A stretch of DNA of 64,000 nucleotides from Gammaproteobacteria bacterium (GCA_050184115.1 JBFXAQ010000001.1:1002304-1066303), one strand, 5' to 3'. Positions 2 through 24,408 are shown, counted from the stretch's first letter. Numbers and translations: made by a program. Notes: generated by a model from the letters alone, not told the origin.

Positions 2-709
2 GCCGTGCGTGGTCGTGACGCTGACGATTTCGACCAGGCCAACATTGCGGGGGTGGGGTGTTTCGCCCGCGCCGCGGTCGAGGTCATGTCGCGGCCGCGG
101 GTCGTACTGCTGTCATCGCTCGCCGCGAGCCGCCCCTGCCTCTCCGACTATGCTGCCAGTAAGCGCGCGGGTGAGGATGCACTCACCGCGGGTGCGGGGC
201 TGGAATGGGCGATCCTGCGCCCCCCCGCGGTCTATGGCCCCGGCGACCGCGAGATGCTGCCGCTGTTCACTGCCGTGCGGCACGGGCTGGCGCCGCGACT
301 CGGACCCCGAGGGCAACGCCTTGCGCTCCTGCACGTGGCCGATCTCGTCCGTGCCGTGCGGCTCGTGATCGAGCACTTCGAGGCTTGCCGCGGGCACACG
401 TTCGAGCTCGACGACGGTCATACCAAGGGCTACGACTGGAGCGAAATCGTCGCTCACGCGCGCGGTCGCCTGCCGGTTGCCCTGGTGCCCGTTCCGCGGC
501 TCGTGCTCGCCGCGATCGCGTGGGTCAACCTGCTGCTGGCGCGCGTGTTCGGTTACCTGCCCATGCTCACACCCGGCAAGGTCAACGAGCTTTCCGCTTC
601 CTGTTGGCTCTGCGATAATCAACCGCTCTCCGCGGCGACCGGTTGGCGCCCGCAAATCGCCCTGGGCGACGGCGTGAACGCCATGTTCGCGCCAACCACC
701 CACGAGTAG
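2..709 (+). CDS. NAD(P)-dependent epimerase/dehydratase, CerR-like ceramide reductase (5'-truncated at window edge)
   Basis: Frame open from position 2. Extended-SDR motifs YAASK (YxxxK) and ILRPPAVYGPGD, plus C-terminal PMLTPGKVNEL. Lies directly upstream of acp and spt, as CerR does in the Caulobacter ceramide locus. Confidence 0.75.
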   Translation, partial: AVRGRDADDFDQANIAGVGCFARAAVEVMSRPRVVLLSSLAASRPCLSDYAASKRAGEDALTAGAGLEWAILRPPAVYGPGDREMLPLFTAVRHGLAPRLGPRGQRLALLHVADLVRAVRLVIEHFEACRGHTFELDDGHTKGYDWSEIVAHARGRLPVALVPVPRLVLAAIAWVNLLLARVFGYLPMLTPGKVNELSASCWLCDNQPLSAATGWRPQIALGDGVNAMFAPTTHE

Positions 710-839
710 ACCGAGAGCCTGTGAAAAGAACTTCGCCACCGCTTCTCCCGCTATCGGGCGCCGGCAATGCCAGTAGCAGCGCGGGCGCCCGCGCGCGTCG
801 TCGGGTGTGGTGCCGGTCGGCCGCCGGGCAGACTCCCGC

Positions 840-1091
840 ATGGTGAAGCCGGCGCACGATGCCATCGTCAGGGACCTCGTCACGCTGCTGACGAAAACCC
901 TCGATCGACCGGCCCAGATGACCGCAGACACCGCCCTGATTGGCGATCTCGGACTCGAGTCGATCCAGGTGATCGAATACTTGTGTGAGGTCGAGGATCA
1001 CTTCGACCTCGCCATCGATGAAGACACCCTCGCCGACGTCAATACCGTCGGCGATCTCGCCGCGGTGGTCGCGCGCTTGCTTGCCGGGTGA
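840..1091 (+). CDS. Acyl carrier protein (83 aa), probably dedicated to Spt
   Basis: DLGLESIQVIE phosphopantetheine-serine motif, VEDHFDLAIDE and VNTVGDL; acidic and small. ATG at 840 preferred over the ORF-track start at 807. Confidence 0.9.
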   Translation: MVKPAHDAIVRDLVTLLTKTLDRPAQMTADTALIGDLGLESIQVIEYLCEVEDHFDLAIDEDTLADVNTVGDLAAVVARLLAG

Positions 1092-1352
1092 AACGCGGCG
1101 TCCACAGCAGCGGACGCGGATCGGGCATCAGGGACGAGCCTCCATGCGGCTGCGTCATCCGCTGGTGGCGCCGCGCGGCTTCTTCGCGCATGAACGGAGC
1201 GGCCCGCGCCGCGCACGTCCGGCCCGCCCGCGGTGGCGTTGTTCCACCGAACCCGACGAGAACCAGACCGTTTCGCGCGAGCGCTCGCATCGACGCTGCC
1301 GGCGCCGCGCGGCCATTTGCCCGCAGTCGAACGATTCCCAGGTGAAGCCGCC

Positions 1353-2552
1353 ATGAGCTTGTCCGAACGTTTCCGCTCCGCTGCCGCGACCCGCGACCTG
1401 CTCGCCGCGCTGCCGGTCAACCCCACCGATATCGTCATCGACGAGGTCCTGTCGGCGACCGAGGCGATGATCCGCGGTCGCCGTACCATCATGGCCGGGA
1501 CCAACAACTATCTCGGTCTGACTTTCGACGCGCAGTGCATCGAGGCCGGTCAACGGGCACTTGCCGAGTCCGGTACCGGCACCACGGGATCACGGATGGC
1601 CAATGGGACCTACCGTGCTCATCTCGAGCTCGAAGCCGAGCTCGCCGCGTTCTTCGGCATGCCTCACGCGATGGTCTTCTCGACCGGTTACGCCGCGAAC
1701 CTCGGCTCGCTGGTCGCACTGCTAGGTGAAGGCGACGCCGTATTGCTCGACTCCGAGGCCCATGCCAGCCTCTTCGACGGTTGCCGCATGAGCGGTGCTG
1801 ACATCTTCCGCTTCAAACACAACGACCCGGACGGACTGGCCAAGCGCCTGCGGCGCCTGGGCGAGCGTGCGCACGACGCCCTGATCGTGGTCGAGGGTTT
1901 GTACAGCATCCGCGGTGATTGCGCGCCGCTCACCGAGTACGCGGCGGTCAAAGCCGAACACGGCGGTTACCTGTTCGTCGACGAGGCACACTCGCTCGGC
2001 GTCTTCGGTGACGGGGGCCGCGGACTGGCCGAGGCCCAGGGTGTGCTCGAGCAGACCGACTTCGTGGTCGGCACGTTCAGCAAGAGCCTGGGTTCGATCG
2101 GCGGCTTCTGTGCCAGTCGCCACGCGGAACTCGGCCTGTTCCGTTACGCCAGTCGTCCCTACATCTTCACGGCTTCGCCCTGCCCGTCGGTCATCGCAAC
2201 CACGCGTGAGGCTCTGCGGCACGTTGCCAACCGTCCGGAACTGCGCACGCAGCTGTGGCGCAATGCGCAGCGTCTCTACGGCGCGCTCGAAGCGCTGGGA
2301 CTGCAGCTCGGCCCGCATGTCAGCCCGGTGGTCGGCGTCAGCTTTGCCGACCGCGCGATCGCCTTGCTCTGCTGGCAGAGCCTGCTCGACAGCGGCGTGT
2401 ACACCAACCTGATCCTGCCGCCGGCGGCGCCGGAGGGGGGCAGCCTCATTCGCGTCAGTGTCACCGCGGCGCACGACGATGCGCAGGTCGACGCCATCGT
2501 CGCCGCGTTCGACGACGCCGTACGTCGGCACCTGCCGGGCTGCGCGGCCTGA
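1353..2552 (+). CDS. spt: Serine palmitoyltransferase (PLP-dependent alpha-oxoamine synthase)
   Basis: GTNNYLGL, GSRMANGT, FSTGYAANLG, AHAS, DEAHS, GTFSKSLG (PLP lysine) and RPYIFTAS. Reads like Sphingomonas/Caulobacter Spt rather than BioF or Kbl. Adjacent to ACP and a CerR-like gene, with a bCerS-like gene in the locus. Confidence 0.85.
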   Translation: MSLSERFRSAAATRDLLAALPVNPTDIVIDEVLSATEAMIRGRRTIMAGTNNYLGLTFDAQCIEAGQRALAESGTGTTGSRMANGTYRAHLELEAELAAFFGMPHAMVFSTGYAANLGSLVALLGEGDAVLLDSEAHASLFDGCRMSGADIFRFKHNDPDGLAKRLRRLGERAHDALIVVEGLYSIRGDCAPLTEYAAVKAEHGGYLFVDEAHSLGVFGDGGRGLAEAQGVLEQTDFVVGTFSKSLGSIGGFCASRHAELGLFRYASRPYIFTASPCPSVIATTREALRHVANRPELRTQLWRNAQRLYGALEALGLQLGPHVSPVVGVSFADRAIALLCWQSLLDSGVYTNLILPPAAPEGGSLIRVSVTAAHDDAQVDAIVAAFDDAVRRHLPGCAA

Positions 2553-2553
2553 G

Positions 2554-3879
2554 TCATCCGCGCGTGTCGCGCCGCAGCGCGGCCCGCACCACCCACGCCG
2601 TCCCGCTCAGCATCACCAGGGACATCGTCAGCGCCGCGACGCCAGGACCGATGAGTCCCATCGACGGCGTCAACAGCACAAACAAGACGACGTAGAGCAG
2701 GGCCGCCAGCGCCTGCACACGCAGGCTGGCCCCGGCCCGCGAGAGGGTGTAGGCGGCCGGGCGCAGCGGCGCGGCGGCGAGTTCGACGGTGGCGGCGCCG
2801 ACCAGCCACGTCAGCAGTCCCGCGGCGGTGGCGTATTCCGCGCCGACGGTGACGCACAGGATGTCGGCGCCGAGCCAGGCCGCGAGGGCCGTGGCGAGCG
2901 CCGCCGGTAAGGCGAGGACGATGGCGACGGCCAGTGTCAGGCGTCCGAAACCGCGGTCGGCGCGGTGCTGTAAGCGTGCAAGGTCGGGGTAGATGGCCTG
3001 GCGTGCGAGCAGGGCGGGCTTGGCGACGACGTTGCCGAACTCGCGCGCGATGCGGAACAGCGCCGCGGCTTCCGCACCGAGCAGGCCACCCGCCAGGACC
3101 GTGCCCAGCGATTTCGGCACCACGTCGAGCGAGCTCTGCCAGTAGACGACGTGGAGGAAGCTCCAGATCCCGGGGTGGCGAGCGGCGGTGGCCCGCGGCG
3201 ACGCCCGGCCGCGCAGCAGTTCCCCACCGAGGCGGGACAGGGTGACCGACCAGCCGTAGCCCAGCATCATGACGTTCTGCAGAACCTGCGCGAGGGCCCA
3301 GACTGCCGCGATCGCCGGCACGGTGGGCGTGAACACCCAGGCGACCAGCGCCACGCCGACCAGTCGCGCACCGTTGCTCACGACCTGGGTCCGGGCGATC
3401 GCATCGAAGCGATCGAACACGCGCAAGGCGCCGCTCGCCGTACCCTGGCCGGAGGTCAGCAGCAGCAGGCTGTAGGCCATCGCGATCGGCGTGACCTCCG
3501 TCGACCACACACCGCACCAGGCCATCACCGGCGCACCTGCCACGCCGACCAGCGCACCCAGCAGGGCACTGCCGATATCGACCAGGGCGAGTGTGCGCAG
3601 GAGCTGCGCGAGGCCGCCGCGATCGCCATCGTCGTGGAGTGGCACGCCGTAGCGGATCACCGCTTCGAAGGGTTTGACGTTCATGACGCTGCGGATGATC
3701 AGCGTATACGCTTGGATCAGTGCCACTGTGCCGAAGTCGGCCGGGCCGAGCGCACGCGCGCTGAGCAGGGTGGCGGCGAGCGCCAGCACGCCGCCGGCGG
3801 CGCGCCCACCGAGCAGGGTCAGGAAGTTTCGCAACACGTTGCGCCACGCCGGCGTCGGCACGGGGACGGTCGCGTTCAT
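2554..3879 (-). CDS. Wzx/MATE-like flippase (polysaccharide biosynthesis protein family), about 441 aa
   Basis: Many hydrophobic segments; LSARALGPADFGTVAL N-terminal pattern; LLGAEAAALFRIA and IYPDLARL. ATG at 3879 overlaps the upstream stop (ATGA). Confidence 0.8.
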   Translation of the reverse strand: MNATVPVPTPAWRNVLRNFLTLLGGRAAGGVLALAATLLSARALGPADFGTVALIQAYTLIIRSVMNVKPFEAVIRYGVPLHDDGDRGGLAQLLRTLALVDIGSALLGALVGVAGAPVMAWCGVWSTEVTPIAMAYSLLLLTSGQGTASGALRVFDRFDAIARTQVVSNGARLVGVALVAWVFTPTVPAIAAVWALAQVLQNVMMLGYGWSVTLSRLGGELLRGRASPRATAARHPGIWSFLHVVYWQSSLDVVPKSLGTVLAGGLLGAEAAALFRIAREFGNVVAKPALLARQAIYPDLARLQHRADRGFGRLTLAVAIVLALPAALATALAAWLGADILCVTVGAEYATAAGLLTWLVGAATVELAAAPLRPAAYTLSRAGASLRVQALAALLYVVLFVLLTPSMGLIGPGVAALTMSLVMLSGTAWVVRAALRRDTRG

Positions 3880-4748
3880 CGAAATCCACCACGACGATAC
3901 AGGCGCCACAACACCGGCCAGCCGAACAGCAACGGGTGGCGGCGCTGCAGCGCGCTGGCCTCGACGCGTACGCCGCTGTGCCGCTCGACTTTCCACAGGA
4001 TGTAGTCGAGCGGCTCGTTGAAGGTGAAAGCGGCCTTGAACAGGCGGGCGACGGACAGCCACTTGCCGAGCGCGCGGCGCGCCCACCACGCACGCCGCGC
4101 CCGCGCGGGATCGGCCGCGCGGCGGCGCCAGTGCCCGGGCGTGGTTGCCGCGAGGCCGCACTCGGCGGCGAGCGCACCCGTCATGACCTCGAGCGCCGTG
4201 CCGTAGGCCGTCACGAGCTCGGCGCCGCGGGCGGGATCCTCGCTGCGCAACTCACAGCCATAGGTCAGAGTGAAGGCGGATCGCCACAGGTCCGTCGTCG
4301 TGAACGTCTCGCCGAGGAGCGGGACAGTTGCCTCGATCATGCGCCGCGCGGCGCTGCGCGCGGCAGCGTCGAGCCGGGTGCGCACACCATCGTCGCGCAC
4401 ATGCAGCACCATCACGGGTTGGGCGAAGCGCGCCCAGAAATAGGGATGGAAGCCGCGCGCGATGGCGCGTTCGAAGTGGCTCAAGGTGACGGTGGCGAAC
4501 TTCGCCGCTTCCGTACCGATGCCCGGGCCGGCGTGAAGGTGATAGACGTTCGGCGGCAGCAGGCGGTTGGCGATAGCCGCCAGCGGGGCGTGCAAGGCGG
4601 TGTAGTCGTCGAGCAGGACGTAGAAGTCGAGCACCGTGTCGCGCTTGCCACGCAGGTAGGAACCGTAGAGCACGACGGCGAGCACGCCGTCGCCGAAGCG
4701 CTCGCGGAGCAGGGTCGCGAAGCGTTGCGGCGCGTCGTCGTCAGCCAT
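3876..4748 (-). CDS. Nucleotidyltransferase-fold protein, Tam41/Mmp37-like putative (d)NMP-lipid transferase
   Basis: AVVLYGSYLRG...DFYVLLDD (GS plus DxD-type nucleotidyltransferase signature) and WARFAQP. Start overlaps the stop of the CDP-alcohol phosphotransferase by 8 nt. The specific family is inferred. Confidence 0.55.
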   Translation of the reverse strand: MADDDAPQRFATLLRERFGDGVLAVVLYGSYLRGKRDTVLDFYVLLDDYTALHAPLAAIANRLLPPNVYHLHAGPGIGTEAAKFATVTLSHFERAIARGFHPYFWARFAQPVMVLHVRDDGVRTRLDAAARSAARRMIEATVPLLGETFTTTDLWRSAFTLTYGCELRSEDPARGAELVTAYGTALEVMTGALAAECGLAATTPGHWRRRAADPARARRAWWARRALGKWLSVARLFKAAFTFNEPLDYILWKVERHSGVRVEASALQRRHPLLFGWPVLWRLYRRGGFR

Positions 4749-6010: not shown

Positions 6011-6880
6011 ATGCGTTTCGTCCACTTGAGCGATCCCCATCTCAGCAGCCTCGCGGATTACCGTTACGCCGACGTTGCTGGCAAGCGCCGCCTCGGCATG
6101 CTGTCGTGGCATCGCCGCCGCCGCCGTCACCATCTGCGCGAGGTGCTCGACGCCCTGTGCGCCGCCGCGCTCGCCGAGCAGCCGGACCTCGTGCTCGTCA
6201 GCGGTGATTTCGTGCAGCTCGGCCTGGCCGGTGAGATCGCCGAGGCGCGGGCCTGGCTCGATGCCTTTGGTGCGGTGCCCGTGCGCATCGTGCCGGGCAA
6301 CCACGACTTCTACCAGCCGGACGCGCTCGCGCCCGCGTTGGCGGCCTGGGCGCCCTACCTCGGCCTCGCGGCGTCGGCCACGTCGGACGCCTTCCCGACC
6401 TGCCTCGAACGTGGTCCGTTGACGGTCATCGGGCTGTGCTCGGCGCAGCCGATGCCGTGGTGGTCCGCCGGCGGGGCGATCGGTGAGGCCCAGCTGCAAC
6501 GTCTCGACGGTCTGCTCGCGCGCAGTCGCGGCCGCTTGCGTTGCGTGATGCTGCACCACCCGCCGCAACCGGGGCAGTGCGCGCGGCGCAAGGCGCTCGC
6601 CGATGCGCACGTCCTCAGCCTGCTGCTCGAGCGCCACGCCGTTGAACTGGTCGTGCATGGTCACGTGCATCGTAACCGCGCCACCCGCCTCGGTCCGGTC
6701 ACGCGGGTCTTCGCGACAGCCTCCGCCTCCAATGCCGCGAGCCACGCACCCGCGTCCTACCGCGTGTTCGAATGCACGGCGGCGGGCGATGCGCGCTGGC
6801 AACTCGCCATGCGTCTGGTCTCCGTCGACCCCAGCGGCCGGGCGCGCGAAGTCGAGCGCGACAGTTGGACCGCGGGTTGA
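6011..6880 (+). CDS. Calcineurin-like metallophosphoesterase
   Basis: All five metal-binding motifs: SDPH, SGD, GNHD, LHHP, GHVH. No signal peptide evident. Confidence 0.9.
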   Translation: MRFVHLSDPHLSSLADYRYADVAGKRRLGMLSWHRRRRRHHLREVLDALCAAALAEQPDLVLVSGDFVQLGLAGEIAEARAWLDAFGAVPVRIVPGNHDFYQPDALAPALAAWAPYLGLAASATSDAFPTCLERGPLTVIGLCSAQPMPWWSAGGAIGEAQLQRLDGLLARSRGRLRCVMLHHPPQPGQCARRKALADAHVLSLLLERHAVELVVHGHVHRNRATRLGPVTRVFATASASNAASHAPASYRVFECTAAGDARWQLAMRLVSVDPSGRAREVERDSWTAG

Positions 6881-7939
6881 TCAGCCGAGACGTCGGATCG
6901 CGAGCACCGCCGCCGCCATCACCAGTATGGATGGCATGAGTGCTGTCAGCGCCGGGTCGAGCTGAAACAGCAGCGCGAGCTGCCCGGTGATGCGTTCGGC
7001 CAGGTAGAAGCCGATACCGATGACGCCGCCGACGACCGCGCGCAGCCCGGTCGAACGCGCGCGCACAGTCCCGGCAACCAGCGGCAGCCCGAGCAAGGCC
7101 ATGCCGAGCAGCGTCAGGGGCAGGCTCGCTTGTTGCCAGAAGCGCACCTCGTGCTCGCGGGTGTCGAGGCCCGCCCCGGCTGTTTCGTGCAGGTAGCGGT
7201 AGAGGTCGATCGGCGACAGGGCATGCGTCGGGCTGACCAGGGTCGAGATCTGATCGGGCGACAGGAAGCTCGCCCAGCGCAAGGTCTCGAGGTGACGGCC
7301 CGACACGGTCTCGCCGTCGATGATCCGTTCCTCGACGTCGTGCAACAACCAGGTGTGCGCGCCGAGGATGTCGGCGCGCACGGCAAGCAGCACGCGCGCG
7401 AGATGGTTGGCCTTGTCGACTTCGTAGATCTCGATGTCCGACGGGATGCGTCCGAACGCGACCTCGCCGACGCGAATGATGCGCTGGTCGCGCCGGCTCC
7501 AGAACTCCGCCCCGCCACGCGCCGTCTGTTCGAGCGTACGGGCGCGAAATTCCTGTGCCTGTCGTTCTGCCAGCGGGATGACGATGAACTGCAGGGTCAG
7601 GGCGAGCGCGACAAGGCCGCCGGCGATGGCGGCCAGGATGCCCCCGAGACGCCATCCCGACAGGCCGGCGGCCCGGATCGCCGTGAGCTCCTGGTGATTG
7701 GCGAGCAGGCCGAGCCCGAGCACCGAGCCGAGCAGCGTGCTGACGGGCAGCAGGTCGAGCAGGCGCGCCGGCGTCGTCAGGAGCATTACGGCGATGGCGT
7801 CGGCGGTGGTGAACGCGCCTTTGCCGACGTCCTCCAGTGCCTCGGCCAGGGCCAGGAAACTGAACAGGCTGAGCAGGATGGCCAGCGCGATGCCGGCGGC
7901 CTTGAGAAAATGCGCGGCAACGTAACGGGCAATCAGCAT
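6881..7939 (-). CDS. LptG-like (YjgP/YjgQ family) ABC permease paralogue
   Basis: MLIARYVAAHF start, PARLLDLLP, LANHQELTAIRAAGLS, a periplasmic beta-rich region, LSPIDLYRY and FWQQASLP. Start overlaps the lptF-like stop (TGATG). Confidence 0.85.
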   Translation of the reverse strand: MLIARYVAAHFLKAAGIALAILLSLFSFLALAEALEDVGKGAFTTADAIAVMLLTTPARLLDLLPVSTLLGSVLGLGLLANHQELTAIRAAGLSGWRLGGILAAIAGGLVALALTLQFIVIPLAERQAQEFRARTLEQTARGGAEFWSRRDQRIIRVGEVAFGRIPSDIEIYEVDKANHLARVLLAVRADILGAHTWLLHDVEERIIDGETVSGRHLETLRWASFLSPDQISTLVSPTHALSPIDLYRYLHETAGAGLDTREHEVRFWQQASLPLTLLGMALLGLPLVAGTVRARSTGLRAVVGGVIGIGFYLAERITGQLALLFQLDPALTALMPSILVMAAAVLAIRRLG

Positions 7940-8997
7940 CAGCGCAGACCGCCGCGTGCGCGTCGCCACCACGAGCCTAGAACGAGGGCGGCCGCCAGCA
8001 GGGCCGGCGCCCACCACAGGCCCGCCACCACCTGCTGTTCGACCCAGGTCCGATTGACGCCGAGCAGGTTGTAGTAGACCGCGTAGATGGCGACCGCCAG
8101 CGGCAGCCGCGCGAAGCGGCTCTCGCGTGGACGCTGATCGACCAGCATCAGCGCACAGGCAGCGAGCAACAGCGTCGACAAAGGCGTCGACAGGCGCCAG
8201 TGCAACTCGGCGCGATCGTCGTCATCGGGCGAGCCCAACAGTTGCAGCGTGGCGGCCGACTTGGTGCGATATTCGCGGTCGATAGGCCGTGTGGCGTCGA
8301 GCGACAAGGTCAGCTCGGCGAAGCGACCGAGCAGGTCGGGTGGGGCGTTGGCGACGAGAAACACGCTGGCCTCGTGCAGTATCAGGCGATGGGTGAGTGG
8401 TGTGGCGAAGGCGTCGAGCGTGGCGCGTGGGGCCGTGATGAGTTCGATGCCTTCAGACCCGCGGGTGCGAATGAACACGCCGCGCAGGGCGCCGCCATCA
8501 GCGCCGATGTGTTCGACGTAGACTGTACGAGCATCGTCTTCGTAGAGGTAGAAGCGCTGAGGCTTGATGCGATCGAGTTCGGATGCGCTCTCGGCTCGAT
8601 CCTTGAGCGCGAACAGGCGCTCGTAGGCCCACGGCCGGGCTTGCAGCGAGAGCACTGCGACCAGCGTCGCGAGCAGCGTACCGAGCAGCAGCAAGGGCCG
8701 GTGCAGGCGGCGGCGCGGTATGCCGCAGGCGCGCATGACGACCAGTTCGTTGTGCAGGTTGAGCCGCCCGCAACCGACGATGATGCCGAAGTAGAACGCC
8801 AGCGGCAGCAGGACTTCCAGCGCGATCACGGCCTTGTAGCCGGTCAGCTGCATGACCTCGGCAGCGTCGAGGAGCCCGCTGGCGGCGTCGGTGAGAAAGC
8901 GGGCCAGGTTGTAGGCGAGAAAGATCACCGTCAGTATGATGGCGACCGTCGCGGTGCTCGCGCCGATTTCGCGCATCAGGTATCGATCGATCAACAC
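7939..8997 (-). CDS. LptF-like (YjgP/YjgQ family) ABC permease paralogue
   Basis: GTG start giving (M)LIDRYLMREI; RLNLHNELVVMRACGI; AELHWRLSTPL; RPRESRF. Confidence 0.85.
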   Translation of the reverse strand: MLIDRYLMREIGASTATVAIILTVIFLAYNLARFLTDAASGLLDAAEVMQLTGYKAVIALEVLLPLAFYFGIIVGCGRLNLHNELVVMRACGIPRRRLHRPLLLLGTLLATLVAVLSLQARPWAYERLFALKDRAESASELDRIKPQRFYLYEDDARTVYVEHIGADGGALRGVFIRTRGSEGIELITAPRATLDAFATPLTHRLILHEASVFLVANAPPDLLGRFAELTLSLDATRPIDREYRTKSAATLQLLGSPDDDDRAELHWRLSTPLSTLLLAACALMLVDQRPRESRFARLPLAVAIYAVYYNLLGVNRTWVEQQVVAGLWWAPALLAAALVLGSWWRRARGGLR

Positions 8998-9030
8998 GGC
9001 AGAATGGCTGGCGATGAGGTGAGGGAGCCC

Positions 9031-9564
9031 GTGGGCAAAGCGTCCTATGATGGTCAGCGCACCCGTGCGGCGCAACTGCATGCGCGCCTCGTGCTGGCGC
9101 TCGTCGCGGCCCTGCTCGCACCGCGCGCCGGCGCCGCGGAGGCCGAGCCACCGCTGCGCGTGCGCGACGATACCGTGTTCATCCGCGCTCAACAGGCACG
9201 TCAGGCCGACGACGCATCAAGCCTGACCGTGAGCGGCGGGCTGTTCATGCGCAGCGGCGCGTGGACGGTGACCGCCGACCATGCCGTCATCAGCGGCCGC
9301 CTGCGCGACCCCGCGCGCATCGATGTCACCGGCGCGCCGGCGCGCATCCACGTCCAGGAAGGCGACGACGCCGAGGCATTCGAAGGCCAGAGCCAGCGTC
9401 TCGAGTTCGAACCGCGCGCCGAGGTCGTGCGCCTCGAGGGCGCGGCGCGCGTCGTCAAGGGCGGGCGCTCGGTCAGCAGCGAATCGATCAAGTACCTGCT
9501 CGATCGCGATACCTTTGCTGCCGGCACCGGCGGTCGCGTGCGGGTGGTGACGACGCCGCATTGA
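9031..9564 (+). CDS. LptA/OstA-like periplasmic beta-jellyroll protein
   Basis: C-terminal part of track ORF 8200..9564. GTG at 9031 follows a GAGG-GAG ribosome-binding sequence. Signal-peptide-like RLVLALVAALLAPRAGA; typical ITAD-like TVTADHAVI, LEGAARVVKGGRSVSSESIKYLLDRD and GRVRVV. Start is uncertain because it is only 33 nt from the divergent lptF-like start. Confidence 0.7.
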   Translation: MGKASYDGQRTRAAQLHARLVLALVAALLAPRAGAAEAEPPLRVRDDTVFIRAQQARQADDASSLTVSGGLFMRSGAWTVTADHAVISGRLRDPARIDVTGAPARIHVQEGDDAEAFEGQSQRLEFEPRAEVVRLEGAARVVKGGRSVSSESIKYLLDRDTFAAGTGGRVRVVTTPH

Positions 9565-9579: not shown

Positions 9580-10338
9580 TCAGTTCGTGGCCGGTGTGCG
9601 TTGCCGCGCTGGTGGACACCAGCCGGCGACGATGCCGGCCGCGCGCTCGAGATCGGCGCGGTCGTCGATCTCGCCCCAACTGAGGCCGTCGATGGCGCAG
9701 GTGGTGACGATGTCCTCGCCTGCCAGGGTGTCGATTGCCGACAGGTACCACTGCTTGAGCCCACTGCCGTGGCGCATCATGAATTCGACCTGTTCGCGGA
9801 AGCGCTGCGCGCCATGGGCGTCGAAGTGCATCATGCCGATGGATTCGCCGGTGACGCGCTTGACGTCGAGTTGCTTGCCGACGCGGCGCAGGCGGCCATC
9901 CGCGACCACGACTTTCATGTCGTCCGCGTCGTAGCTCGGCTTGCTGTCGGTCACTAGCGTGATCGGCGCGCGCGCGCGGTCGTCGAGCAGGCGCTGCAGG
10001 ATCGCGGCCTCGAACAGCGTGTCGCCGTTGATGATGACGAAAGGCGCGGTCATCTCGTGGCGCGCGACCCAGCAGGTGCCGAGGTTGTCGCAGGCGGCGA
10101 AGAAGGGGTTGTAGAGCGCGCGGGCCGGTACGTCGTGCTGGCCCGCGACGATGGCATCGACGTAGTCGGCCCCGAAACCGGTCACCACCACCACCTCGTC
10201 GACCGCGCACTGGGCGATTTCGTGCAACTGCCATTCCAGCACCGCCCGTGCGCCCACCGCGAGCGCGGCCTTGGGGCGTTGTTCGGTCAAGGGCAATAGC
10301 CGCCGGCCCTGGCCGGCACTCAGGATGATTGCTTTCAT
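9580..10338 (-). CDS. Sugar-phosphate/phosphocholine-type cytidylyltransferase (NTP_transferase family)
   Basis: MKAIILSAGQGRRLLPLTEQRPK, INGDTLF, GESIG and WGEIDDRADL; LicC-like. In this locus it probably activates a head group. Confidence 0.8.
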   Translation of the reverse strand: MKAIILSAGQGRRLLPLTEQRPKAALAVGARAVLEWQLHEIAQCAVDEVVVVTGFGADYVDAIVAGQHDVPARALYNPFFAACDNLGTCWVARHEMTAPFVIINGDTLFEAAILQRLLDDRARAPITLVTDSKPSYDADDMKVVVADGRLRRVGKQLDVKRVTGESIGMMHFDAHGAQRFREQVEFMMRHGSGLKQWYLSAIDTLAGEDIVTTCAIDGLSWGEIDDRADLERAAGIVAGWCPPARQRTPATN

Positions 10339-10432: not shown

Positions 10433-11185
10433 TCACCGGCGCGCGGCGACCCGGCGGTTCCAGGCGGCGAGATTCTTCAGTGGGTCCTTGACGTAATGCG
10501 TCGCCTGCATGAGGCGCAGGATGCCGGCGTTGAACCAGGTGCCGACGGTGTCCATGGGGCGGTCGATGTCGATGAACAGTACGGCGCGGTACTCGGGCGT
10601 ATCGTTGCGCACCTCGTGTTCGTAGGTATCGTCGAAGATCACCGCCTCGCCTTCCCGCCAGTGGTAGATCTCGTCGTCGACGCGGATCCAGCAATGCTCG
10701 CGGTCGGCCGGGACGCGCAAGCCGAGGTGGCAACGGACCAGCGCGCGGGTCGGGCCGCGATGGGGCGGAATGTGATAGCCGGGCGCGAGGATCGAGAACC
10801 ACGCATTGAGCAGGCGCGGCAGGCTGGCGAGCAGGGCGGCGGTCTGGGGGCAGGCCGCGCAATTCTGCGCTACCGGCTGGCCGAAGATATAGAGCGCATA
10901 CGTCTTCCAGTGATCGCCCTTGGAGATCCGGTATTGGTCGGGCGAGATCTGGTGGAAGGCCGGGATGTCCTCGGGGTGAGTCCAGACCTGGTCGAACTCG
11001 CGACGTACACCCGGCCATGCCGCTTCGAGGCGCGGGACCCAGTCGAAGGTGTCGTTGGGCAGGACCGGGGCGGTGCCGATGAGCGAGTGGCGAGCCTGGA
11101 AATCGGTCACGGCGCGCAGGAACTGCTTGCCGGCGCGGTGAACCAGCGCGCGGCGCCAGCGGTAGAAAGCGGACGTGTCAGTCAT
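10433..11185 (-). CDS. Aspartyl/asparaginyl beta-hydroxylase family Fe(II)/2-oxoglutarate dioxygenase (LpxO-related)
   Basis: FSILAPGYHIPPHRGP, RCHLGL and FDDTYEHEVRN motifs. ATG at 11185 overlaps the upstream stop by 8 nt. Confidence 0.85.
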   Translation of the reverse strand: MTDTSAFYRWRRALVHRAGKQFLRAVTDFQARHSLIGTAPVLPNDTFDWVPRLEAAWPGVRREFDQVWTHPEDIPAFHQISPDQYRISKGDHWKTYALYIFGQPVAQNCAACPQTAALLASLPRLLNAWFSILAPGYHIPPHRGPTRALVRCHLGLRVPADREHCWIRVDDEIYHWREGEAVIFDDTYEHEVRNDTPEYRAVLFIDIDRPMDTVGTWFNAGILRLMQATHYVKDPLKNLAAWNRRVAARR

Positions 11186-11969
11186 GCGCCAGGATCCTCT
11201 CGGCAAGCGCGTGGTCGGCGGCCGAGTCGACGTCGACCGCGGCACGGGGTTCATCGATCGTGATGGCGGCGATCGCGGCGCCGGCGCGCGCCGACAGGCG
11301 GGCCAGGGCCTGCGCGCGGTCGAGGCGTCCGCCGAGGTAGCGCAGCAGGGTGCCGAAGCCGATCCCGTGCGCGATTCGCCAGGGTCGCTTGCGTTCGCGT
11401 TCGAGCGTGCGCCAGTAGGCGAGTGCGGTGAGCGCCCGCGGCGTGCGCAGCAGGAACAGGTTCGACCCGCAGCAGGCACCGTCGGCGAAGCGCAACAGGG
11501 TCCGTTGCGATTCCGGCCACGCCGCGTGGACGCGCGACCAGGGCACGAGGCCGATGACGACGTCCGCTGTGACCGCGGCCGCGCGCGTACAGAAGTCGTC
11601 GACGATGGCCGGGGTCAGCAGGGCGTGGTCGCCGGCGGTGAGCAACAGGGGAAAGCATTCGAGCGCGCTGGCGCCGACCATGGCGCTGGCCGAGGGACCG
11701 TCGGCGGGCGCCAGCCAGCGGTAATCGCCGGCCTCGAGCAGGCCACGCAGGCCGGCGTCGCCGGCGACGATGGCCGCCGCCGGCCCGACCACCACGCCGC
11801 CGGCGACGTGACGACTGGCGCGCAGCGCATCGAGCACCCTGGCCAGGCAGCTGCGGCCATGAACTTCCACCAGCACGCCGGCCGGCAGACCGTGGCTGCG
11901 CGCGAGTGCGTTACCGCCGGGACGCTCGCCGGCCAGGACCACCGCCCGCACCGATGGCGCGGCGCTCAT
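11178..11969 (-). CDS. MobA-like NTP transferase domain protein
   Basis: C-terminal part of track ORF 11178..13118: AVVLAGERPGG, LLTAGDHALL, GSNLF and AAVDVDSAADH. Confidence 0.75.
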   Translation of the reverse strand: MSAAPSVRAVVLAGERPGGNALARSHGLPAGVLVEVHGRSCLARVLDALRASRHVAGGVVVGPAAAIVAGDAGLRGLLEAGDYRWLAPADGPSASAMVGASALECFPLLLTAGDHALLTPAIVDDFCTRAAAVTADVVIGLVPWSRVHAAWPESQRTLLRFADGACCGSNLFLLRTPRALTALAYWRTLERERKRPWRIAHGIGFGTLLRYLGGRLDRAQALARLSARAGAAIAAITIDEPRAAVDVDSAADHALAERILAHD

Positions 11970-12055: not shown

Positions 12056-13198
12056 TCAGCCCAGGCTCTTGTCGTAGACCCGGTAGCGCTTGGTGACGTG
12101 GCCGCCGAGGGTCTCGATGATGTTCTTCATGGCCTCGTTCGATTCGAGGATCCACGACATCTCGACCTCTTCGAGGCCCTTGCGCAGGCCGGGGGCGCGC
12201 AGCGCCTCGACCACCGAGAGCGCGAGACCGGGTCCGTAGCGGGTGTTGTGCAGGCGGCGGCGCACACCCATCAGCGGGATGCGCGCGCTGCGCGGGTAAC
12301 CGAACTTGAGTCGCCGCAGGAGCTTGAGCCAGCCGCCGGGCCACAGTCGGCCGTCGAGATCGGCGATGCACTCGTTGACGTTCGGCAGCAGCACGATGAA
12401 GGCCACCGGTTCGCCCTTCATCTCCGCGATCTGGATGAAGTCGGGCGGGATGATCATCAGCATCTCGTGACCGATGGTGCGGAATTCGTGCGCGGTGAAT
12501 GGGACGAAGCCCCAGTTGTCGGCCCAGGCGTCGTTGAAGATGTCGCGCAGGATGTCGAGGTCGGCATCCTTGCGCCGCGGGTCCAGCGGGCGGATGGTGA
12601 CGTCGCGCTGCAGGCGTGCGTAGAGCGATCGCATCACCGGCGGCGGCTGGAAATCGGCCGGGATGAGGTAAGCGAACATGTCGGCGGCCTTGGTGTAGCC
12701 GAGCGTTTCGAGCGCCGGCCCGTAGAAGGGGCGCGCATGGGTCATCATGAAATACGGCGGCGTGTCGAAGCCCTCGACCAGCAGCCCCACTTCCTGGTTG
12801 ATGTTGAAGCCGAACGGTCCGCGCACGCGGCGCAAGCCGCGCGCGCGCAACCAATCCTCGGCGCTGCGTGTCAGCACGCCCAATACTTCGGCGTCGATAC
12901 CCTCGATGAAGCCGAAGAAACCGGTGTCGTCGGTGTGGCGTTCGAGGTGCAGGCGATCGACCTGGGCGGTGATGCGGCCGACCGCGCGGCCGTCGCGGTA
13001 GGCGACCCAGCCCTGCCAGTCGAGGTGCTCGAAGACCGGCTGCTTGGGTGCCAGGACCTCCTTCCGCTCCAGCAGCAGCGGCGGTACCCAGTGGGGATCG
13101 TCGCCGTAGATGGCCCACGGCACGCGCACGAAATCGTCGCGGGTACGGCGGTTGTCGACCGGGTGGAGGATGAGTCCGCCCGCGCGGTTCTGGGTCAT
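12056..13198 (-). CDS. GNAT-fold N-acyltransferase, bacterial ceramide synthase (bCerS)-like
   Basis: PWAIYGDDPHWVPPL, GFFGFIE, GLLVEGFDTPPYFMMTH, FNDAWADNWGFVPFT and EMSWILESN...KRYRVYDK match my recollection of the bCerS family. About 380 aa and in the spt locus. Confidence 0.8.
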   Translation of the reverse strand: MTQNRAGGLILHPVDNRRTRDDFVRVPWAIYGDDPHWVPPLLLERKEVLAPKQPVFEHLDWQGWVAYRDGRAVGRITAQVDRLHLERHTDDTGFFGFIEGIDAEVLGVLTRSAEDWLRARGLRRVRGPFGFNINQEVGLLVEGFDTPPYFMMTHARPFYGPALETLGYTKAADMFAYLIPADFQPPPVMRSLYARLQRDVTIRPLDPRRKDADLDILRDIFNDAWADNWGFVPFTAHEFRTIGHEMLMIIPPDFIQIAEMKGEPVAFIVLLPNVNECIADLDGRLWPGGWLKLLRRLKFGYPRSARIPLMGVRRRLHNTRYGPGLALSVVEALRAPGLRKGLEEVEMSWILESNEAMKNIIETLGGHVTKRYRVYDKSLG

Positions 13199-13325
13199 GG
13201 CGAGCCGTCCGGGGAGCCGGCAGCGGGCCGGCGAGGGCGCATGGTAGCCAACCGGCCGCGGCGAGGGAACCGCGTCACGGGCGGCTGACTTATACTGCGC
13301 GCACCATTCAAGCAGGGGAGTTGCG

Positions 13326-13772
13326 ATGAAGCCGAAAGTTGCGCAGGAATACGTCCAGGTGCAGGACCTCGAGTGGCAACCGTTCCCGGACGCCTTCTCC
13401 GAAGGTGGTATCCGCTGGAAGCTGCTGCACGTGTCGCCCGAGATGGGTGCGTGGACGGCTATCTTCGATTGCCCGGCGGGCTCGTCGTTCGCGCGGCACA
13501 TCCACGTAGGCCCTGGCGAGTACCTGCTGACCAAGGGCAAGATGGAGGTGCGCGGCGGTGTCGACGAGGGCGGCGCGACGGCGCTGGCGATGGGTTACGG
13601 CTACGAGTCCTGCAACGCCCGTCACGACAAGACCTACTTCCCCGTGCCGAGCGAGTTCTACATGACCTTCCTCGGCCCGCTGCAGTTCATCAACGAAGAC
13701 GGCAGCCCGGTAGCCGTGGTCGGCTGGGAACAGGCCCAGGACCTGTGGTCGGCACAAATCGGGGCGGCTTGA
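13326..13772 (+). CDS. dke1: Acetylacetone-cleaving beta-diketone dioxygenase (cupin)
   Basis: PFPDAFSEGGIRW, WTAIFDCPAGSSFARHIHVGPGEYLLTKGKMEVRGG and FYMTFLGPL closely resemble Acinetobacter Dke1 as I recall it. Three-His metal site (HIH plus RHD). Confidence 0.8.
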   Translation: MKPKVAQEYVQVQDLEWQPFPDAFSEGGIRWKLLHVSPEMGAWTAIFDCPAGSSFARHIHVGPGEYLLTKGKMEVRGGVDEGGATALAMGYGYESCNARHDKTYFPVPSEFYMTFLGPLQFINEDGSPVAVVGWEQAQDLWSAQIGAA

Positions 13773-13780
13773 ACGATGCG

Positions 13781-13804
13781 GCGCGCGATCCCGCGATCGC
13801 GCGC
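13781..13804. terminator. Hairpin between convergent dke1 and tRNA-Leu, possible bidirectional terminator
   Basis: Perfect 10-bp stem GCGCGCGATC-CCGC-GATCGCGCGC. No clear U-tract. Confidence 0.35.
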
Positions 13805-13916
13805 TGTAACCCGCCGTGCGGCACGCAGCACCGGGCATGCTGGAGGCGATCTTCACGCGCCGTCTGTGCGAGCGCGGTCGGCGCGCGGCAGCGGCAGGAA
13901 GTCATTCACGCAGTGG

Positions 13917-14003
<87 letters not shown>

Positions 14004-14042
14004 AAGAGGCGCGCAATCTACCCATTCGGCCTGAGCGAGTCA

Positions 14043-16238
14043 ATGCGTCGTAAACCACCCCGAACGCCCCGCGGCGAGGCGACCGAGTACGAGCACGTCG
14101 AGGACCTGCCCGGTCGCGACGACATCCTGCGCGCACTTGCCGCGTTGGCGGCGCCGAGCGATTTCGACGGCATTGCACGAGCGCTGGGTGTGACGCGCAA
14201 GGCGGCTCGCCGCGCACTGGAGCGGCGCATGGCCGCGATGACCCGGGATGGTCAGCTGGTGCGTACCCGCGGCGAACGTTACGGCCTGGCCGAGCGCATG
14301 GAACTGCTGCCGGGGCGCGTGCTCGCGCACCGCGACGGCTACGCCTTCGTACGCCCGGAAGCGGGCGGCGACGACATCTACCTCGCGCCGCGTGAAGCCT
14401 GCCGGACCCTGCACGGCGACAAGGTGCTGGTGCGTGTCGCGGGCTTCGATCGGCGCGACCGCCCCTATGGTCACCTGGTCGAGATCCTCGAACGTGCCCA
14501 CGAGCGGATCGTCGGGCGCTACTTCCGCGATCGCGGCTTCGGCCGGCTGGTGCCTGACAACCATCGTCTCAACCAGGACCTGATCATCCCGGCCGGTGCC
14601 GAGGGTGGTGCCCACGACGGCCAGATCGTCGTCGCCGTCATCGAACAGCAGCCCGAGCGCCACCAGCAGCCGGTCGGGCGCATTGTCGAGATCCTCGGCG
14701 AGCACATGGCGCCGGGCATGGAGATCGAGATCGCGCTGCGCAGCCATCACCTGCCGTGCGAATGGCCGGTCGAAACCGGGCGCGAGGCCGCACGCGTGAC
14801 ACAGCGTGTGTCTCCGGCGGAGCTGGCGCGGCGTCGCGATTTGCGCAGCCTCGCGTTGGTCACCATCGACGGCGCCGATGCCCGCGACTTCGACGACGCC
14901 GTGCACGCGCGGCGCACCGTCCACGGATTCGTCCTGACGGTGGCCATTGCCGATGTCGCGCACTATGTCCGCCCGGGGAGCGCGCTCGACGACGAAGCGC
15001 GGCGCCGCGGCACGTCGGTCTATTTCCCCGACCGCGTCATCCCCATGCTGCCCGAGGCGCTGTCGAACGGTATCTGCTCGCTGGTGCCGGACGAGGAACG
15101 CCTGGCGATGGTCTGCGAGCTGACCATCACCGGCACGGGCGAGGTCCGCCGCGCACGCTTCTTCGAGGCGGTGATCCGCTCGCATGCACGTCTCATCTAC
15201 ACCGACGTGCAGCGCTGGCGCGACGGCGATGCCGCCGCGCTGCCCGGGCTGGCGAGGGCAGTGGCCGACAACCTCGGCGTCCTCTACGACCTCTACGGAT
15301 GCTTGCGCGAAGCGCGCGAGGCACGCGGCGCGCTCGACATCGACACCGTTGAACCGCGCTTCCACTACGACGACGCCGGCAAGATCGCGCGCATCGAGGG
15401 CACGGTGCGCGTCGACGCCCACCGGCTGATCGAGGAATGCATGATCGCGGCGAACGTCGCCGCCGCGCGGCGCCTCGAGCGCAGCCGTGAACCCGCGCTG
15501 TACCGCGTGCACGACGTCCCGGCAGAGGACAAGGTCGAGGAACTCGGGCGCTTCCTCGGCGAACTCGGTCTCGGTGGCCACCTCGGCCAGGTGGCGACGC
15601 CGGAATCGTACGCGGCGGTGCTGGCGGTCGCCGCCGGTCGCGCCGATCAGCGCCTGGTCGAGACGGTCCTGCTGCGCAGCCTCAAACTGGCCGTCTACAG
15701 TCCGGACAACAGCGGGCACTTCGGCCTCGCGCTCGATGCATATACCCACTTCACCTCGCCCATCCGCCGCTATCCCGACCTCGTCGTCCATCGCGCATTG
15801 AAGGCGGTGCTTGGCGTCGGCGAGGGCGCCGAGCAGGCCCACATGGCCGAACTCGCCGAACATTGCTCGATGTGCGAGCGGCGTGCCGACGACGCGTCCC
15901 GCGACGTCATCGCCTGGCTCAAGTGCGAGTTCATGCAGGAGCGCATCGGTGAGACCTTCCCCGGCATCATTTCCGGAGTCGCGGAGTTCGGCGTGTTCGT
16001 CGAACTCGACGACATCTTCGTCGAGGGGCTCGTGCACGTCACCGAGCTACCCGGCGACTATTACCTCTACGATGCTGCGCGCCACGTGTTGCGCGGGCGG
16101 GCCAGCCACCGCGAGTTCCGTCTCGGCCAGGCGGTCGACGTCCGCCTGGCGCGGGTCGACCTCGACGAACGCAAGATCGATTTCACGCTCGCCGACGCCG
16201 CCGTGGAACGCGGTCGGCGCGGCCGTCGCCGGCGCTGA
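14043..16238 (+). CDS. rnr: Ribonuclease R
   Basis: HRDGYAF cold-shock domain, TIDGADARDFDDAV catalytic motif, HFTSPIRRYPDL and C-terminal S1 domain. Confidence 0.97.
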   Translation: MRRKPPRTPRGEATEYEHVEDLPGRDDILRALAALAAPSDFDGIARALGVTRKAARRALERRMAAMTRDGQLVRTRGERYGLAERMELLPGRVLAHRDGYAFVRPEAGGDDIYLAPREACRTLHGDKVLVRVAGFDRRDRPYGHLVEILERAHERIVGRYFRDRGFGRLVPDNHRLNQDLIIPAGAEGGAHDGQIVVAVIEQQPERHQQPVGRIVEILGEHMAPGMEIEIALRSHHLPCEWPVETGREAARVTQRVSPAELARRRDLRSLALVTIDGADARDFDDAVHARRTVHGFVLTVAIADVAHYVRPGSALDDEARRRGTSVYFPDRVIPMLPEALSNGICSLVPDEERLAMVCELTITGTGEVRRARFFEAVIRSHARLIYTDVQRWRDGDAAALPGLARAVADNLGVLYDLYGCLREAREARGALDIDTVEPRFHYDDAGKIARIEGTVRVDAHRLIEECMIAANVAAARRLERSREPALYRVHDVPAEDKVEELGRFLGELGLGGHLGQVATPESYAAVLAVAAGRADQRLVETVLLRSLKLAVYSPDNSGHFGLALDAYTHFTSPIRRYPDLVVHRALKAVLGVGEGAEQAHMAELAEHCSMCERRADDASRDVIAWLKCEFMQERIGETFPGIISGVAEFGVFVELDDIFVEGLVHVTELPGDYYLYDAARHVLRGRASHREFRLGQAVDVRLARVDLDERKIDFTLADAAVERGRRGRRRR

Positions 16239-17008
16239 TGGCCGAGCGTGACCTGGTCATCGGCGGCTGGCACGCCGTGCGCCTGGCCCTGGAACTCGCG
16301 CCGGACAGCGCGCTCGAGCTGTGGCTGCGTCAGGGCCACGAGGACGAGTCCGCTGACGCGCTGGCGGAGCAGGCACGGCGCTGTGGTGCTGCCGTGCAGC
16401 GCGTCGAGCCGCGCACGCTCGATCGCCTGTACGGCGACGAACGGCACCAGGGCGTGGTGCTGCGGCGGCGGCCGCCGGCGATGCACCCGCTCGACGACCT
16501 GCTGGCCCGGGGCTCGACCACGCCGCCTCTGCTGCTCGTGCTCGATGGGGTACAGGATCCGCGCAATTTCGGCGCCTGCCTGCGCGCCGCTGATGGCGCC
16601 GGCGTCGACGCGGTGATCTATCCGCGCGACAAGAGTGCGCCCCTGTCGAGCGTCGCCGCAAAGGCGGCGAGCGGCGCGCTCGACACCGTCGCGCTGGTGC
16701 CGGTGGCCAACCTCGCGCGCGCGCTCGATGCCGTGAAGACCGCCGGCGTGTGGGTGACCGGGACCGCCCACGATGCCGCACTCGATCTCTACGCCGCGGA
16801 GTTCACCGCACCGGCGGCGTTGGTGCTCGGTAACGAGGGCAGCGGGCTGCGTCGCCTGACCCGCGAGCGCTGCGATCATCTCGTCCGCATCCCGATGGCC
16901 GGCCGCGTACCCAGCCTGAACGTGGCCACGGCCGCCGCCGTCTGCCTGTTCGAGGTGCGACGGCAGCGACGGGTGGGAAGCGGCAGCGACCATCGACCGA
17001 GCGCGTAG
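16238..17008 (+). CDS. rlmB: 23S rRNA (guanosine-2251-2'-O)-methyltransferase RlmB
   Basis: HQGVV, LDGVQDPRNFGACLR, GNEGSG and SLNVA (SPOUT fold); follows rnr. Confidence 0.95.
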   Translation: MAERDLVIGGWHAVRLALELAPDSALELWLRQGHEDESADALAEQARRCGAAVQRVEPRTLDRLYGDERHQGVVLRRRPPAMHPLDDLLARGSTTPPLLLVLDGVQDPRNFGACLRAADGAGVDAVIYPRDKSAPLSSVAAKAASGALDTVALVPVANLARALDAVKTAGVWVTGTAHDAALDLYAAEFTAPAALVLGNEGSGLRRLTRERCDHLVRIPMAGRVPSLNVATAAAVCLFEVRRQRRVGSGSDHRPSA

Positions 17009-17143
17009 CGCGGTAGGTCCATGAATCAATGGGTTGCGGTTGACGGCACGGGCTCGCCCAGAACCCGCGCCGCGCCTCCGCCGCCGCCTTTGCACGGCGG
17101 GCGCCGGCAGCCTAGAATACGCGCCCCCGCAAGGGCCACAGAC

Positions 17144-17194
17144 CTCCTTGCTTCACCGCCAGGTCGGGAAGCTTCATATCCGTAAGGAGCGCCA
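17144..17194 (+). promoter_or_regulatory. rpsF leader, S6:S18-binding-type cis-regulatory RNA
   Basis: CTCCTTGC (17144-17151) can pair with GTAAGGAG (17182-17189), sequestering the Shine-Dalgarno. A CCG lies just 5' of the SD strand, as in known S6:S18 leaders. Candidate -10 TAGAAT at 17113-17118. Confidence 0.65.
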
Positions 17195-24335: not shown

Positions 24336-24408
24336 GGATTTCATCCCATCGTCGAATCTGGTGCCGCCGGGCCCCGAGGGGGTATCCAGCGGGCATTGCG
24401 TTCTTGTG

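Follow-up and report, generated by a model that had tools for sequence, protein, structure and literature searches.

An lptA-like gene divergent from lptF- and lptG-type genes within a gammaproteobacterial ceramide gene cluster: putative components of a sphingolipid export route

We analyzed a DNA stretch of 64,000 nucleotides (hereafter the window; GCA_050184115.1, JBFXAQ010000001.1:1002304-1066303) from the metagenome-assembled genome (MAG) of an uncultured landfill gammaproteobacterium, in which three genes related to the lipopolysaccharide (LPS) transport genes lptF, lptG, and lptA occupy positions 6881-9564. A public record of the stretch is contig JBFWTC010000001.1 (1.34 Mb) of the landfill-metagenome MAG GCA_050248045.1. 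The GC content of the window is about 68-70%. Genes were called from the GC bias at third codon positions (GC3), followed by start refinement, and the calls match those of the public record. A sequence-only reading of the window had placed three Lpt-like genes in this interval, and both the GC3 frame bias and the profile matches locate them there; its left limit of 8200 for the LptA open reading frame (ORF; 8200-9564) turned out to be a spurious long upstream extension of the frame. The three genes are the following:

6881-7939, minus strand: lptG2, LptG-type permease, 352 aa
7939-8997, minus strand: lptF2, LptF-type permease, 352 aa, GTG start
9004 or 9031 to 9564, plus strand: lptA2, secreted LptA-like beta-jellyroll protein, divergent from lptF2

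They have a central position in a complete ceramide cluster of 16 genes (aas-cerR-acp-spt ... bCerS). As the sequence-only reading had noted, they lie among sphingolipid genes, with cerR, ACP, and Spt at 5-2552 and the bacterial ceramide synthase (bCerS) at 12056-13198. We consider it probable that the three genes are the contribution of this locus to an export route dedicated to the anionic sphingolipid that the cluster makes.

Both permeases were identified by profile searches. Profile PF03739 matched lptG2 over its full length (4.8e-61) and lptF2 (1.4e-60), the two permeases scoring 207 and 206 bits (cutoff 27.9) over profile positions 1-353 and 1-348. Additionally, lptG2 reached 293 bits against TIGR04408 LptG (cutoff 240) and lptF2 reached 276 bits against TIGR04407 LptF (cutoff 230). 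The comparison of lptG2 with Pseudomonas aeruginosa LptG gave 127 bits, and the public assembly contains the same 352-aa call. The stop codon of lptF2 overlaps the ATG of lptG2 by 1 nt, which argues that the two genes form an operon. The AlphaFold2 (AF2) model of LptF2, with a predicted local distance difference test (pLDDT) score of 87, contains six transmembrane (TM) helices (residues 2-39, 45-81, 95-142, 259-286, 298-320, and 329-349), a coupling helix at 84-90, and beta-jellyroll strands at 149-234, between TM3 and TM4. The best nine Foldseek matches of this model were LptF chains (E 2e-20). The structure model was made for LptF2; LptG2 is assigned by its profile match. A coupling-helix glutamate, in the column of Escherichia coli LptF E84 and LptG E88, occurs in 41 of 41 canonical and sphingolipid-linked sequences, the window pair included, and E84 is unchanged across 31 LptF2 homologues. 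We take this residue, following established LptB2FG work, to be the one that docks into the LptB groove.

The window permeases share 21-29% identity with canonical proteins, and we infer from sequence comparison that lptF2 and lptG2 are putative paralogues of a canonical pair in this genome. In the first neighbor-joining (NJ) trees, the canonical LptF of E. coli, Vibrio, Pseudomonas, and Acinetobacter grouped with 88-98% bootstrap and canonical LptG with 100%, and the window-type F2 and G2 sequences formed groups of their own with 100% and 99%, respectively. In the enlarged tree, all 19 non-alphaproteobacterial sphingolipid-linked LptF sequences fell into one clade with 100% bootstrap. This clade draws from Gamma- and Betaproteobacteria, Desulfobacterota, Nitrospirota, and Rokubacteria, and it excludes the canonical LptF of the same four genera; the alphaproteobacterial spt-linked LptF and LptG of the survey are highly divergent and lie outside it. 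The LptF2 of Halieaceae, whose order is related to Pseudomonas, also groups with the spt-linked copies, off the canonical clade. Since a gammaproteobacterial housekeeping LptF should not join Nitrospirota and Desulfobacterota against Pseudomonas and Vibrio, we read this topology as an lptF2 lineage that travels with the lipid locus; the argument applies above all to the Halieaceae members. Within it, the subclade that carries LptA2 received 96% support in the LptF tree and 99% in the LptG tree.

Two simpler criteria were considered and set aside. Pairwise similarity (140 bits between the window LptF2 and P. aeruginosa LptF, 103 bits between the window LptF2 and the E. coli LptF2) appeared to speak against a shared LptF2 lineage, a case overturned by the bootstrapped trees with more taxa. 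The NCBIfam equivalog cutoffs were rejected as a discriminator between canonical and paralogous genes because the extra spt-linked copies of E. coli are also named lptF and lptG. Among the E. coli genomes, canonical pepA-linked lptFG was present in 5426 of 5426, and the spt-linked pair in 886 of the 5426, always as an extra copy. TIGR04407 and TIGR04408 thus name sphingolipid-linked copies as the LPS transporter, and automated annotation cannot separate the two systems (window 6881-8997; E. coli locus L039 12401-14547; related loci carry L numbers throughout). The canonical contexts that the sequence-only reading named, pepA-lptFG and lptC-lptA-lptB, were found as such in E. coli K-12.

The third gene had been read as LptA rather than LptC, and the profile comparison with the PDB, Foldseek, and hhalign agree with that choice. 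The lptA2 product has 186 aa from ATG 9004 and 177 aa from GTG 9031, the start of the public call; a start at 9091 is also possible. It matched PF03968 with 35.6 bits (cutoff 20.4) and scored below the LptA equivalog cutoffs, with 57.7 bits against 71.7 for TIGR03002 and 26 bits against 234 for NF008143. Because of these sub-cutoff scores, we filed lptA2 as a member of an LptA-like paralogue family and not as LptA. Against the PDB, the LptA2 family profile retrieved E. coli LptA at 7.5e-10 and P. aeruginosa LptH at 0.005, with no LptC or LptD at E<=1. The hhalign probability was 95.8% for E. coli LptA (127 columns) and 1.3% for E. coli LptC. The best 19 Foldseek matches of the LptA2 model were LptA or LptH chains (E 3.6e-8, TM-score on target 0.65-0.76), and LptC and the LptD N-terminus ranked later, at about 3e-4. 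At the C-terminus, the strand region can be aligned with its E. coli LptA counterpart and is similar to it; in LptA, this region serves the head-to-tail jellyroll contacts of the Lpt bridge.

A hydrophobic N-terminal stretch of at least 8 residues (median 17) was present in 132 of 141 Met-starting members of the LptA2 family. The 60 N-termini inspected consist of a short basic stretch, a hydrophobic core, and mostly an AxA-like site followed by acidic residues. By this heuristic, LptA2 carries a Sec-type signal peptide, so the protein should be soluble in the periplasm like LptA and not anchored in the manner of LptC. An LptC-like anchored protein had been suggested by a helix at residues 18-38 of the AF2 model and by a long N-terminal extension in close relatives; profile, fold, and signal peptide ruled it out, and PF06835 (LptC) gave no match in lptA2.

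The start codons of lptA2 and lptF2 stand back to back, 4-76 bp apart. Among close relatives, the reading frame ahead of the LptA2 signal peptide contains a shared motif, Y-[DH]-G-[QE]-x (TATGAT or TATCAT in the DNA), in the region 9004-9075 of the window and the same region of L001, L006-L009, L011-L013, L031, and L033. It might represent an extended, conserved n-region; alternatively, it could belong to the shared divergent control region as a -10-like or regulatory element. A promoter and terminator scan of the divergent region 8850-9250 found nothing.

The linkage of lptA2 to the permeases is strict among relatives. In each of the 36 related loci of sufficient length for a judgment, the gene is the direct upstream neighbor of lptF2-lptG2 and points away from them, an arrangement kept down to 37-42% LptF2 identity and accompanied by full cluster synteny in many loci. 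Likewise, permeases inside an spt/bCerS-type cluster occur in more than 40 related loci. An exhaustive profile search of 1.84 billion representatives gave 140 LptA2 matches at E<=1e-10. The family was delimited by single linkage to verified lptF2 neighbors, which retained 137 of 155 sequences (147 representatives and 8 earlier close homologues) and corresponds to at least 137 clusters at 50% identity. The sphingolipid context still surrounds a member at E 2e-15, and a match at E 5e-11 is a canonical lptA in kdsD-kdsC-lptC-lptA-lptB-rpoN, which sets the family border at about that value.

We also sampled bCerS loci, taking the best 80 of at most 600 matches, from Gamma-, Beta-, and Alphaproteobacteria, Desulfobacterota, Nitrospirota, Acidobacteriota, and Rokubacteria. 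LptF/G genes stand beside bCerS in 54 of these 80 loci. LptA2 was found in six of the 80, all six of them gammaproteobacterial MAGs, and a hidden Markov model search without speed filters (--max, to E = 10) detected nothing in the other 74. Judging from sequence, LptA2 would be a dedicated LptA paralogue, found in the sampled loci in a gammaproteobacterial subclade only and yet widespread, and a testable candidate for the periplasmic step.

Two other types of locus were recorded. Halieaceae/Pseudomonadales MAGs (L015-L018, L020-L023, L026, and L030) have a flippase gene and lptA2 divergent from lptF2-lptG2, with no spt or bCerS within 10 kb; in their place are three genes for P-loop 'dTMP-kinase-like' proteins, which show about 50% identity to YghS, YghT, and the adjacent hypothetical protein of the E. 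coli spt locus. In enterobacterial loci (E. coli, Citrobacter, and Rosenbergiella), an unrelated YtfJ-family periplasmic protein occupies the position of LptA2. This protein, of 186 aa with a signal peptide, is encoded directly upstream of the extra lptF in L039 (E. coli NZ_CP029164.1, 11811-12371), L083, L086, L087, and L103, and it could be an analogous, unrelated periplasmic partner.

The statement that the window holds no linked ATPase or LptC held up. No ABC_tran or LptC Pfam domain was detected in any sizeable ORF of the 64-kb window, and the E. coli LptB and LptC sequences, used as tblastn queries, had no match there. The same two queries against 41 related loci (725 kb) returned one weak generic ATP-binding cassette (ABC) match, distant from the cluster, and neither LptD nor LptE was found in the window or in the 41 loci. 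With over 40 loci lacking a linked ATPase, the simplest motor is an LptB encoded in trans, and it is most likely the housekeeping LptB that would drive LptF2-LptG2 here.

ABC ATPases do occur near a few bCerS loci of other phyla. Two ORFs, in L082 (about 19657, minus strand) and L110 (about 319, minus strand), reach 278 and 232 bits against E. coli LptB, and in Desulfobulbaceae loci a generic ABC ATPase (about 90-105 bits) directly follows spt (L049, L064, and L082). In some lineages, then, the motor gene may be linked to the sphingolipid locus.

The remaining genes of the cluster are listed below in window coordinates:

directly outside the window (public record): aas (AMP-binding)
5-2552, plus strand: cerR-like epimerase/reductase (cut by the window edge), ACP, and Spt (PF01370, PF00550, PF00155)
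2554-3879, minus strand: MOP/Wzx-type flippase-like membrane protein, 441 aa (PF01943, start refined)
3876-4748, minus strand: protein without assigned family or Tam41-like, 290 aa
4741-5925, minus strand: CDP-alcohol phosphatidyltransferase (PF01066)
6011-6880, plus strand: metallophosphoesterase (PF00149)
9580-10338, minus strand: nucleoside triphosphate (NTP) transferase (PF12804/PF00483)
10433-11185, minus strand: OlsC/LpxO-type acyl hydroxylase (PF05118; NF052565 OlsC 211 bits, below cutoff)
11178-11969, minus strand: second NTP transferase (PF12804/PF00483)
12056-13198, minus strand: bCerS, YghO-type bacterial ceramide synthase homologue, 380 aa

The window Spt and the annotated E. coli spt product share 54% identity, and bCerS aligns to E. 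coli YghO with 370 bits and 48% identity across 371 aa, together with a weak GNAT match. The flippase-like gene scored 28.2 bits to PF01943, equal to the gathering score, on the long ORF 2554-4161, and the public record flags the match as weak; the gene is common to the window-type, Halieaceae-type, and E. coli spt loci. For the 290-aa protein, the orthologue in a marine relative (locus L043, 2872-3750) has a weak match to Tam41 (CDP-DAG synthase-like). The set of head-group genes suggests a CDP-activated route to a phosphosphingolipid.

The cluster lies between Cupin_7 and RNase R (rnr) genes at one end and an imuB/lexA-type cassette at the other end. In relatives with an LptF2 59-82% identical to that of the window (L001, L007, L009, L011, and L012, compared with 12056-17656 of the window), it keeps RNase R and rpsF as neighbors. 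These shared chromosomal neighbors, and a GC content equal to that of the flanks, mark the cluster as an old resident of the lineage and not a recent island.

For this organism, we infer the following course of transport, including the part played by LptA2. The products of aas, cerR, ACP, Spt, and bCerS would build ceramide at the cytoplasmic face of the inner membrane, and the CDP-alcohol transferase, the two NTP transferases, and the phosphoesterase would add a phospho-head group. Flipping of the lipid across the inner membrane is probably the task of the Wzx-like protein. LptF2 and LptG2 would be the membrane half of an LptB2FG-type extractor, the ATPase of which must come in trans, as none is present in the locus, and is most likely the housekeeping LptB. 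LptA2 would take the lipid from the LptF2 jellyroll and carry or bridge it toward the outer membrane. The first acceptor may be LptA2 itself, there being no LptC2 in the loci, or the housekeeping LptC. Delivery would most likely be finished by the housekeeping LptD/E directly, or by LptA and then LptD/E.

Part of this scheme is known from Caulobacter. A second LptC, LptF, and LptG (CC_1168, CC_1156, and CC_1155) were described in its sphingolipid cluster, phosphosphingolipid export by LptC2/F2/G2 was proposed, and the gammaproteobacterial clusters examined in that study were without an LptC2 orthologue (PMC11324152, 2024). Later work reported that Caulobacter tolerates deletion of lptF2, lptG2, and lptC2 only with spt or cpgB switched off, and that LptF2 and LptG2 co-purify and each pull down the single LptB (bioRxiv 10.64898/2026.04.12.717747). 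The same study found lptF2G2 in many alpha- and gammaproteobacterial sphingolipid loci, including that of E. coli UTI89, and lptC2 apparently confined to Caulobacter. It found no duplicate of LptA, LptD, or LptE in any sphingolipid locus and stated that the periplasmic and outer-membrane steps are unknown, the inner-membrane step being identified. It also described Sphingomonas wittichii, which is without LPS and has the spt-linked lptFG as its only pair. The parallel Lpt-like route with a borrowed LptB, which the sequence-only reading had offered as an inference, is therefore already published for Caulobacter, and at our locus the ceramide genes, the coupling glutamate, the lack of a linked ATPase, and the grouping of LptF with sphingolipid-linked LptF of several phyla fit it.

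The window resembles Caulobacter, whose LptF2 (CCNA_01214) and LptG2 (CCNA_01213) also form a pair within an spt/bCerS locus that has no linked ATPase and includes a flippase-like gene, and the proposed task is the same, namely to export an anionic phosphosphingolipid by recruiting the LptB of the LPS system. We drew this likeness from published descriptions. The two systems differ in the periplasmic component, as Caulobacter has the LptC-like LptC2 (CCNA_01226) and no LptA duplicate, whereas the window has a secreted LptA-like protein and no LptC2. The head-group genes differ as well, with cpgABC in Caulobacter and, in the window, a CDP-alcohol transferase, two MobA-like NTP transferases, a metallophosphoesterase, and the 290-aa protein. 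With the canonical LptB2FGC-LptA-LptDE system (structures from E. coli, P. aeruginosa, V. cholerae, and A. baylyi), the window shares the folds of LptF2 and LptA2, the coupling-helix glutamate, and the jellyroll between TM3 and TM4. However, the pepA and lptCAB contexts are absent at the window, its LptF belongs to a separate clade, and the cargo is presumed to be a two-chain sphingolipid instead of hexa-acyl lipid A.

The E. coli yghT-yghO locus is accessory beside the canonical lptFG. It has spt, acp, cerR, an acyl-AMP ligase, yghO (bCerS), a Wzx-like gene, and an extra lptF-lptG in common with the window, but it encodes a YtfJ-family protein in place of LptA2 and the P-loop kinases YghS/YghT as head-group genes, and its LptF2 is 27-29% identical to that of the window. 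S. wittichii is similar in that LptF/G adjoin sphingolipid genes and sphingolipid is the presumed cargo; according to its published description, the spt-linked lptFG are sole copies within a single full Lpt set.

The sequence-only reading had judged the novelty of the locus to be partial. This judgment is right for LptF/G and undervalued the LptA-like gene: the LptF/LptG half and the borrowing of LptB are already published, the LptA-like gene is not, and our search of the available literature found no prior report of an LptA paralogue in sphingolipid loci. LptA2 is possibly, though this remains a tentative proposal, the first lipid-class-specific periplasmic Lpt bridge protein, docking to LptF2/G2 without LptC and providing sphingolipid with a lane of its own; the sphingolipid path would then join the LPS machine at LptB and LptD/E only. 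If true, this would make the Lpt bridge a modular device, with shared end components between which a cell could operate two bridges, each specific to its cargo, and it would put a name to a candidate for the periplasmic step still missing from bacterial sphingolipid export. The window and about 40 related loci indicate that a large group of uncultured Gammaproteobacteria encodes an LptA duplicate tightly linked to lptF2G2, and clusters with LptA2, clusters with YtfJ, and clusters with neither provide a natural contrast. The LptA2 carriers recorded here, about 41, are all MAGs.

Several points weigh against a dedicated sphingolipid route with LptA2 as its periplasmic component. Both permeases pass the NCBI equivalog cutoffs for LptF and LptG and bear these names in the Prokaryotic Genome Annotation Pipeline (PGAP). 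The trees are bootstrapped NJ trees of about 340 trimmed columns with three or four canonical references, all gammaproteobacterial, and the phylogeny that the earlier reading had proposed as a check succeeded in part: LptF groups with the sphingolipid-linked LptF of several phyla (100%), but a single sphingolipid-linked clade in the LptG tree has only 32% support. The readable range of the source genome is the 64-kb window plus 10 kb, hence the paralogy is putative. The AF2 model of LptA2 has a moderate overall pLDDT of 67.8, with about 80-90 at core residues 60-150. LptA2 is absent from 48 of the 54 bCerS loci that bear LptF/G; since most sphingolipid loci with LptF/G do without it, LptA2 is not generally required. 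In Caulobacter, LptC2 did not co-purify with LptF2/G2 (bioRxiv 10.64898/2026.04.12.717747). Finally, the sequence was present in three DNA metagenome runs only and in zero RNA runs.

The first alternative is that the lptF, lptG, and lptA of the window are the only, housekeeping Lpt genes of the organism, lying beside the sphingolipid cluster or captured by it; their cargo would be LPS, LPS and sphingolipid, or sphingolipid only in an LPS-less cell, as reported for S. wittichii. The permease scores above the curated cutoffs are what this explanation predicts, relatives are publicly annotated 'LPS export ABC transporter permease LptF', and S. wittichii offers a precedent with its spt-linked pair only (bioRxiv 10.64898/2026.04.12.717747). 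The stable position by rnr-rpsF in relatives 60-82% identical, with GC the same as in the flanks, is compatible with it as well. Nevertheless, we regard it as unlikely, because the extra copies of E. coli also pass the cutoffs, and because the window LptF, like that of Halieaceae, falls outside the canonical gammaproteobacterial clade and joins the spt-linked LptF of other phyla (100%). Moreover, LptA2 scores below the LptA cutoff and lies apart from lptC and lptB, while the canonical lptA recovered by the same profile search sits in kdsD-kdsC-lptC-lptA-lptB-rpoN; sole copies in the window would need lptC and lptB standing elsewhere without lptA.

The second alternative accepts sphingolipid export by LptF2G2 and makes LptA2 either a substitute for LptC or a soluble chaperone or shuttle to an LptD/E-independent pathway. 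It would account for loci without LptC2, although canonical LptB2FG needs LptC, and for the back-to-back position of lptA2 and lptF2; the unrelated YtfJ protein at the same position in E. coli also suggests an exchangeable periplasmic acceptor and not a fixed bridge. The cleavable signal peptide (a heuristic call) without a membrane anchor, the lack of LptC profile similarity, and the C-terminal strand region resembling that of E. coli LptA speak for a bridge-type LptA2 instead, and we find this second alternative improbable too. That the transporter moves another product (a hydroxylated aminolipid, another glycolipid, or LPS modified by the OlsC/LpxO-like hydroxylase) is very improbable: the OlsC/LpxO-type hydroxylase and Wzx-like protein of the cluster and the Halieaceae loci with flippase-lptA2-lptF2G2 but no spt within 10 kb would allow it, yet kinases of YghS/YghT type in those loci share about 50% identity with genes of the E. 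coli spt locus, LptF/G stand beside bCerS across phyla in 54 of the 80 sampled loci, and the lethality of Caulobacter LptF2/G2 loss is tied to anionic ceramide synthesis (bioRxiv 10.64898/2026.04.12.717747).

Outside the ceramide cluster, three further groups of genes were recorded in the window. A PEP-CTERM-sorted protein (23460-24566) adjoins a 981-aa multi-TPR protein within 23460-27828, a pair that recalls exopolysaccharide/PEP-CTERM systems. The region 42823-50364 encodes a 1686-aa protein with a Ser/Thr kinase domain at residues 225-450 and a C-terminal FGE-sulfatase (formylglycine-generating-enzyme-like) domain, beside a second FGE-sulfatase-domain protein (43582-45300) and an S-adenosylmethionine (SAM) methyltransferase (42823-43581). 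A two-partner secretion (TPS) pair occupies 53513-63999: behind a ShlB/FhaC-type transporter (53513-55549) comes a giant exoprotein with a TPS domain, more than 2764 aa long, which runs past the window end.

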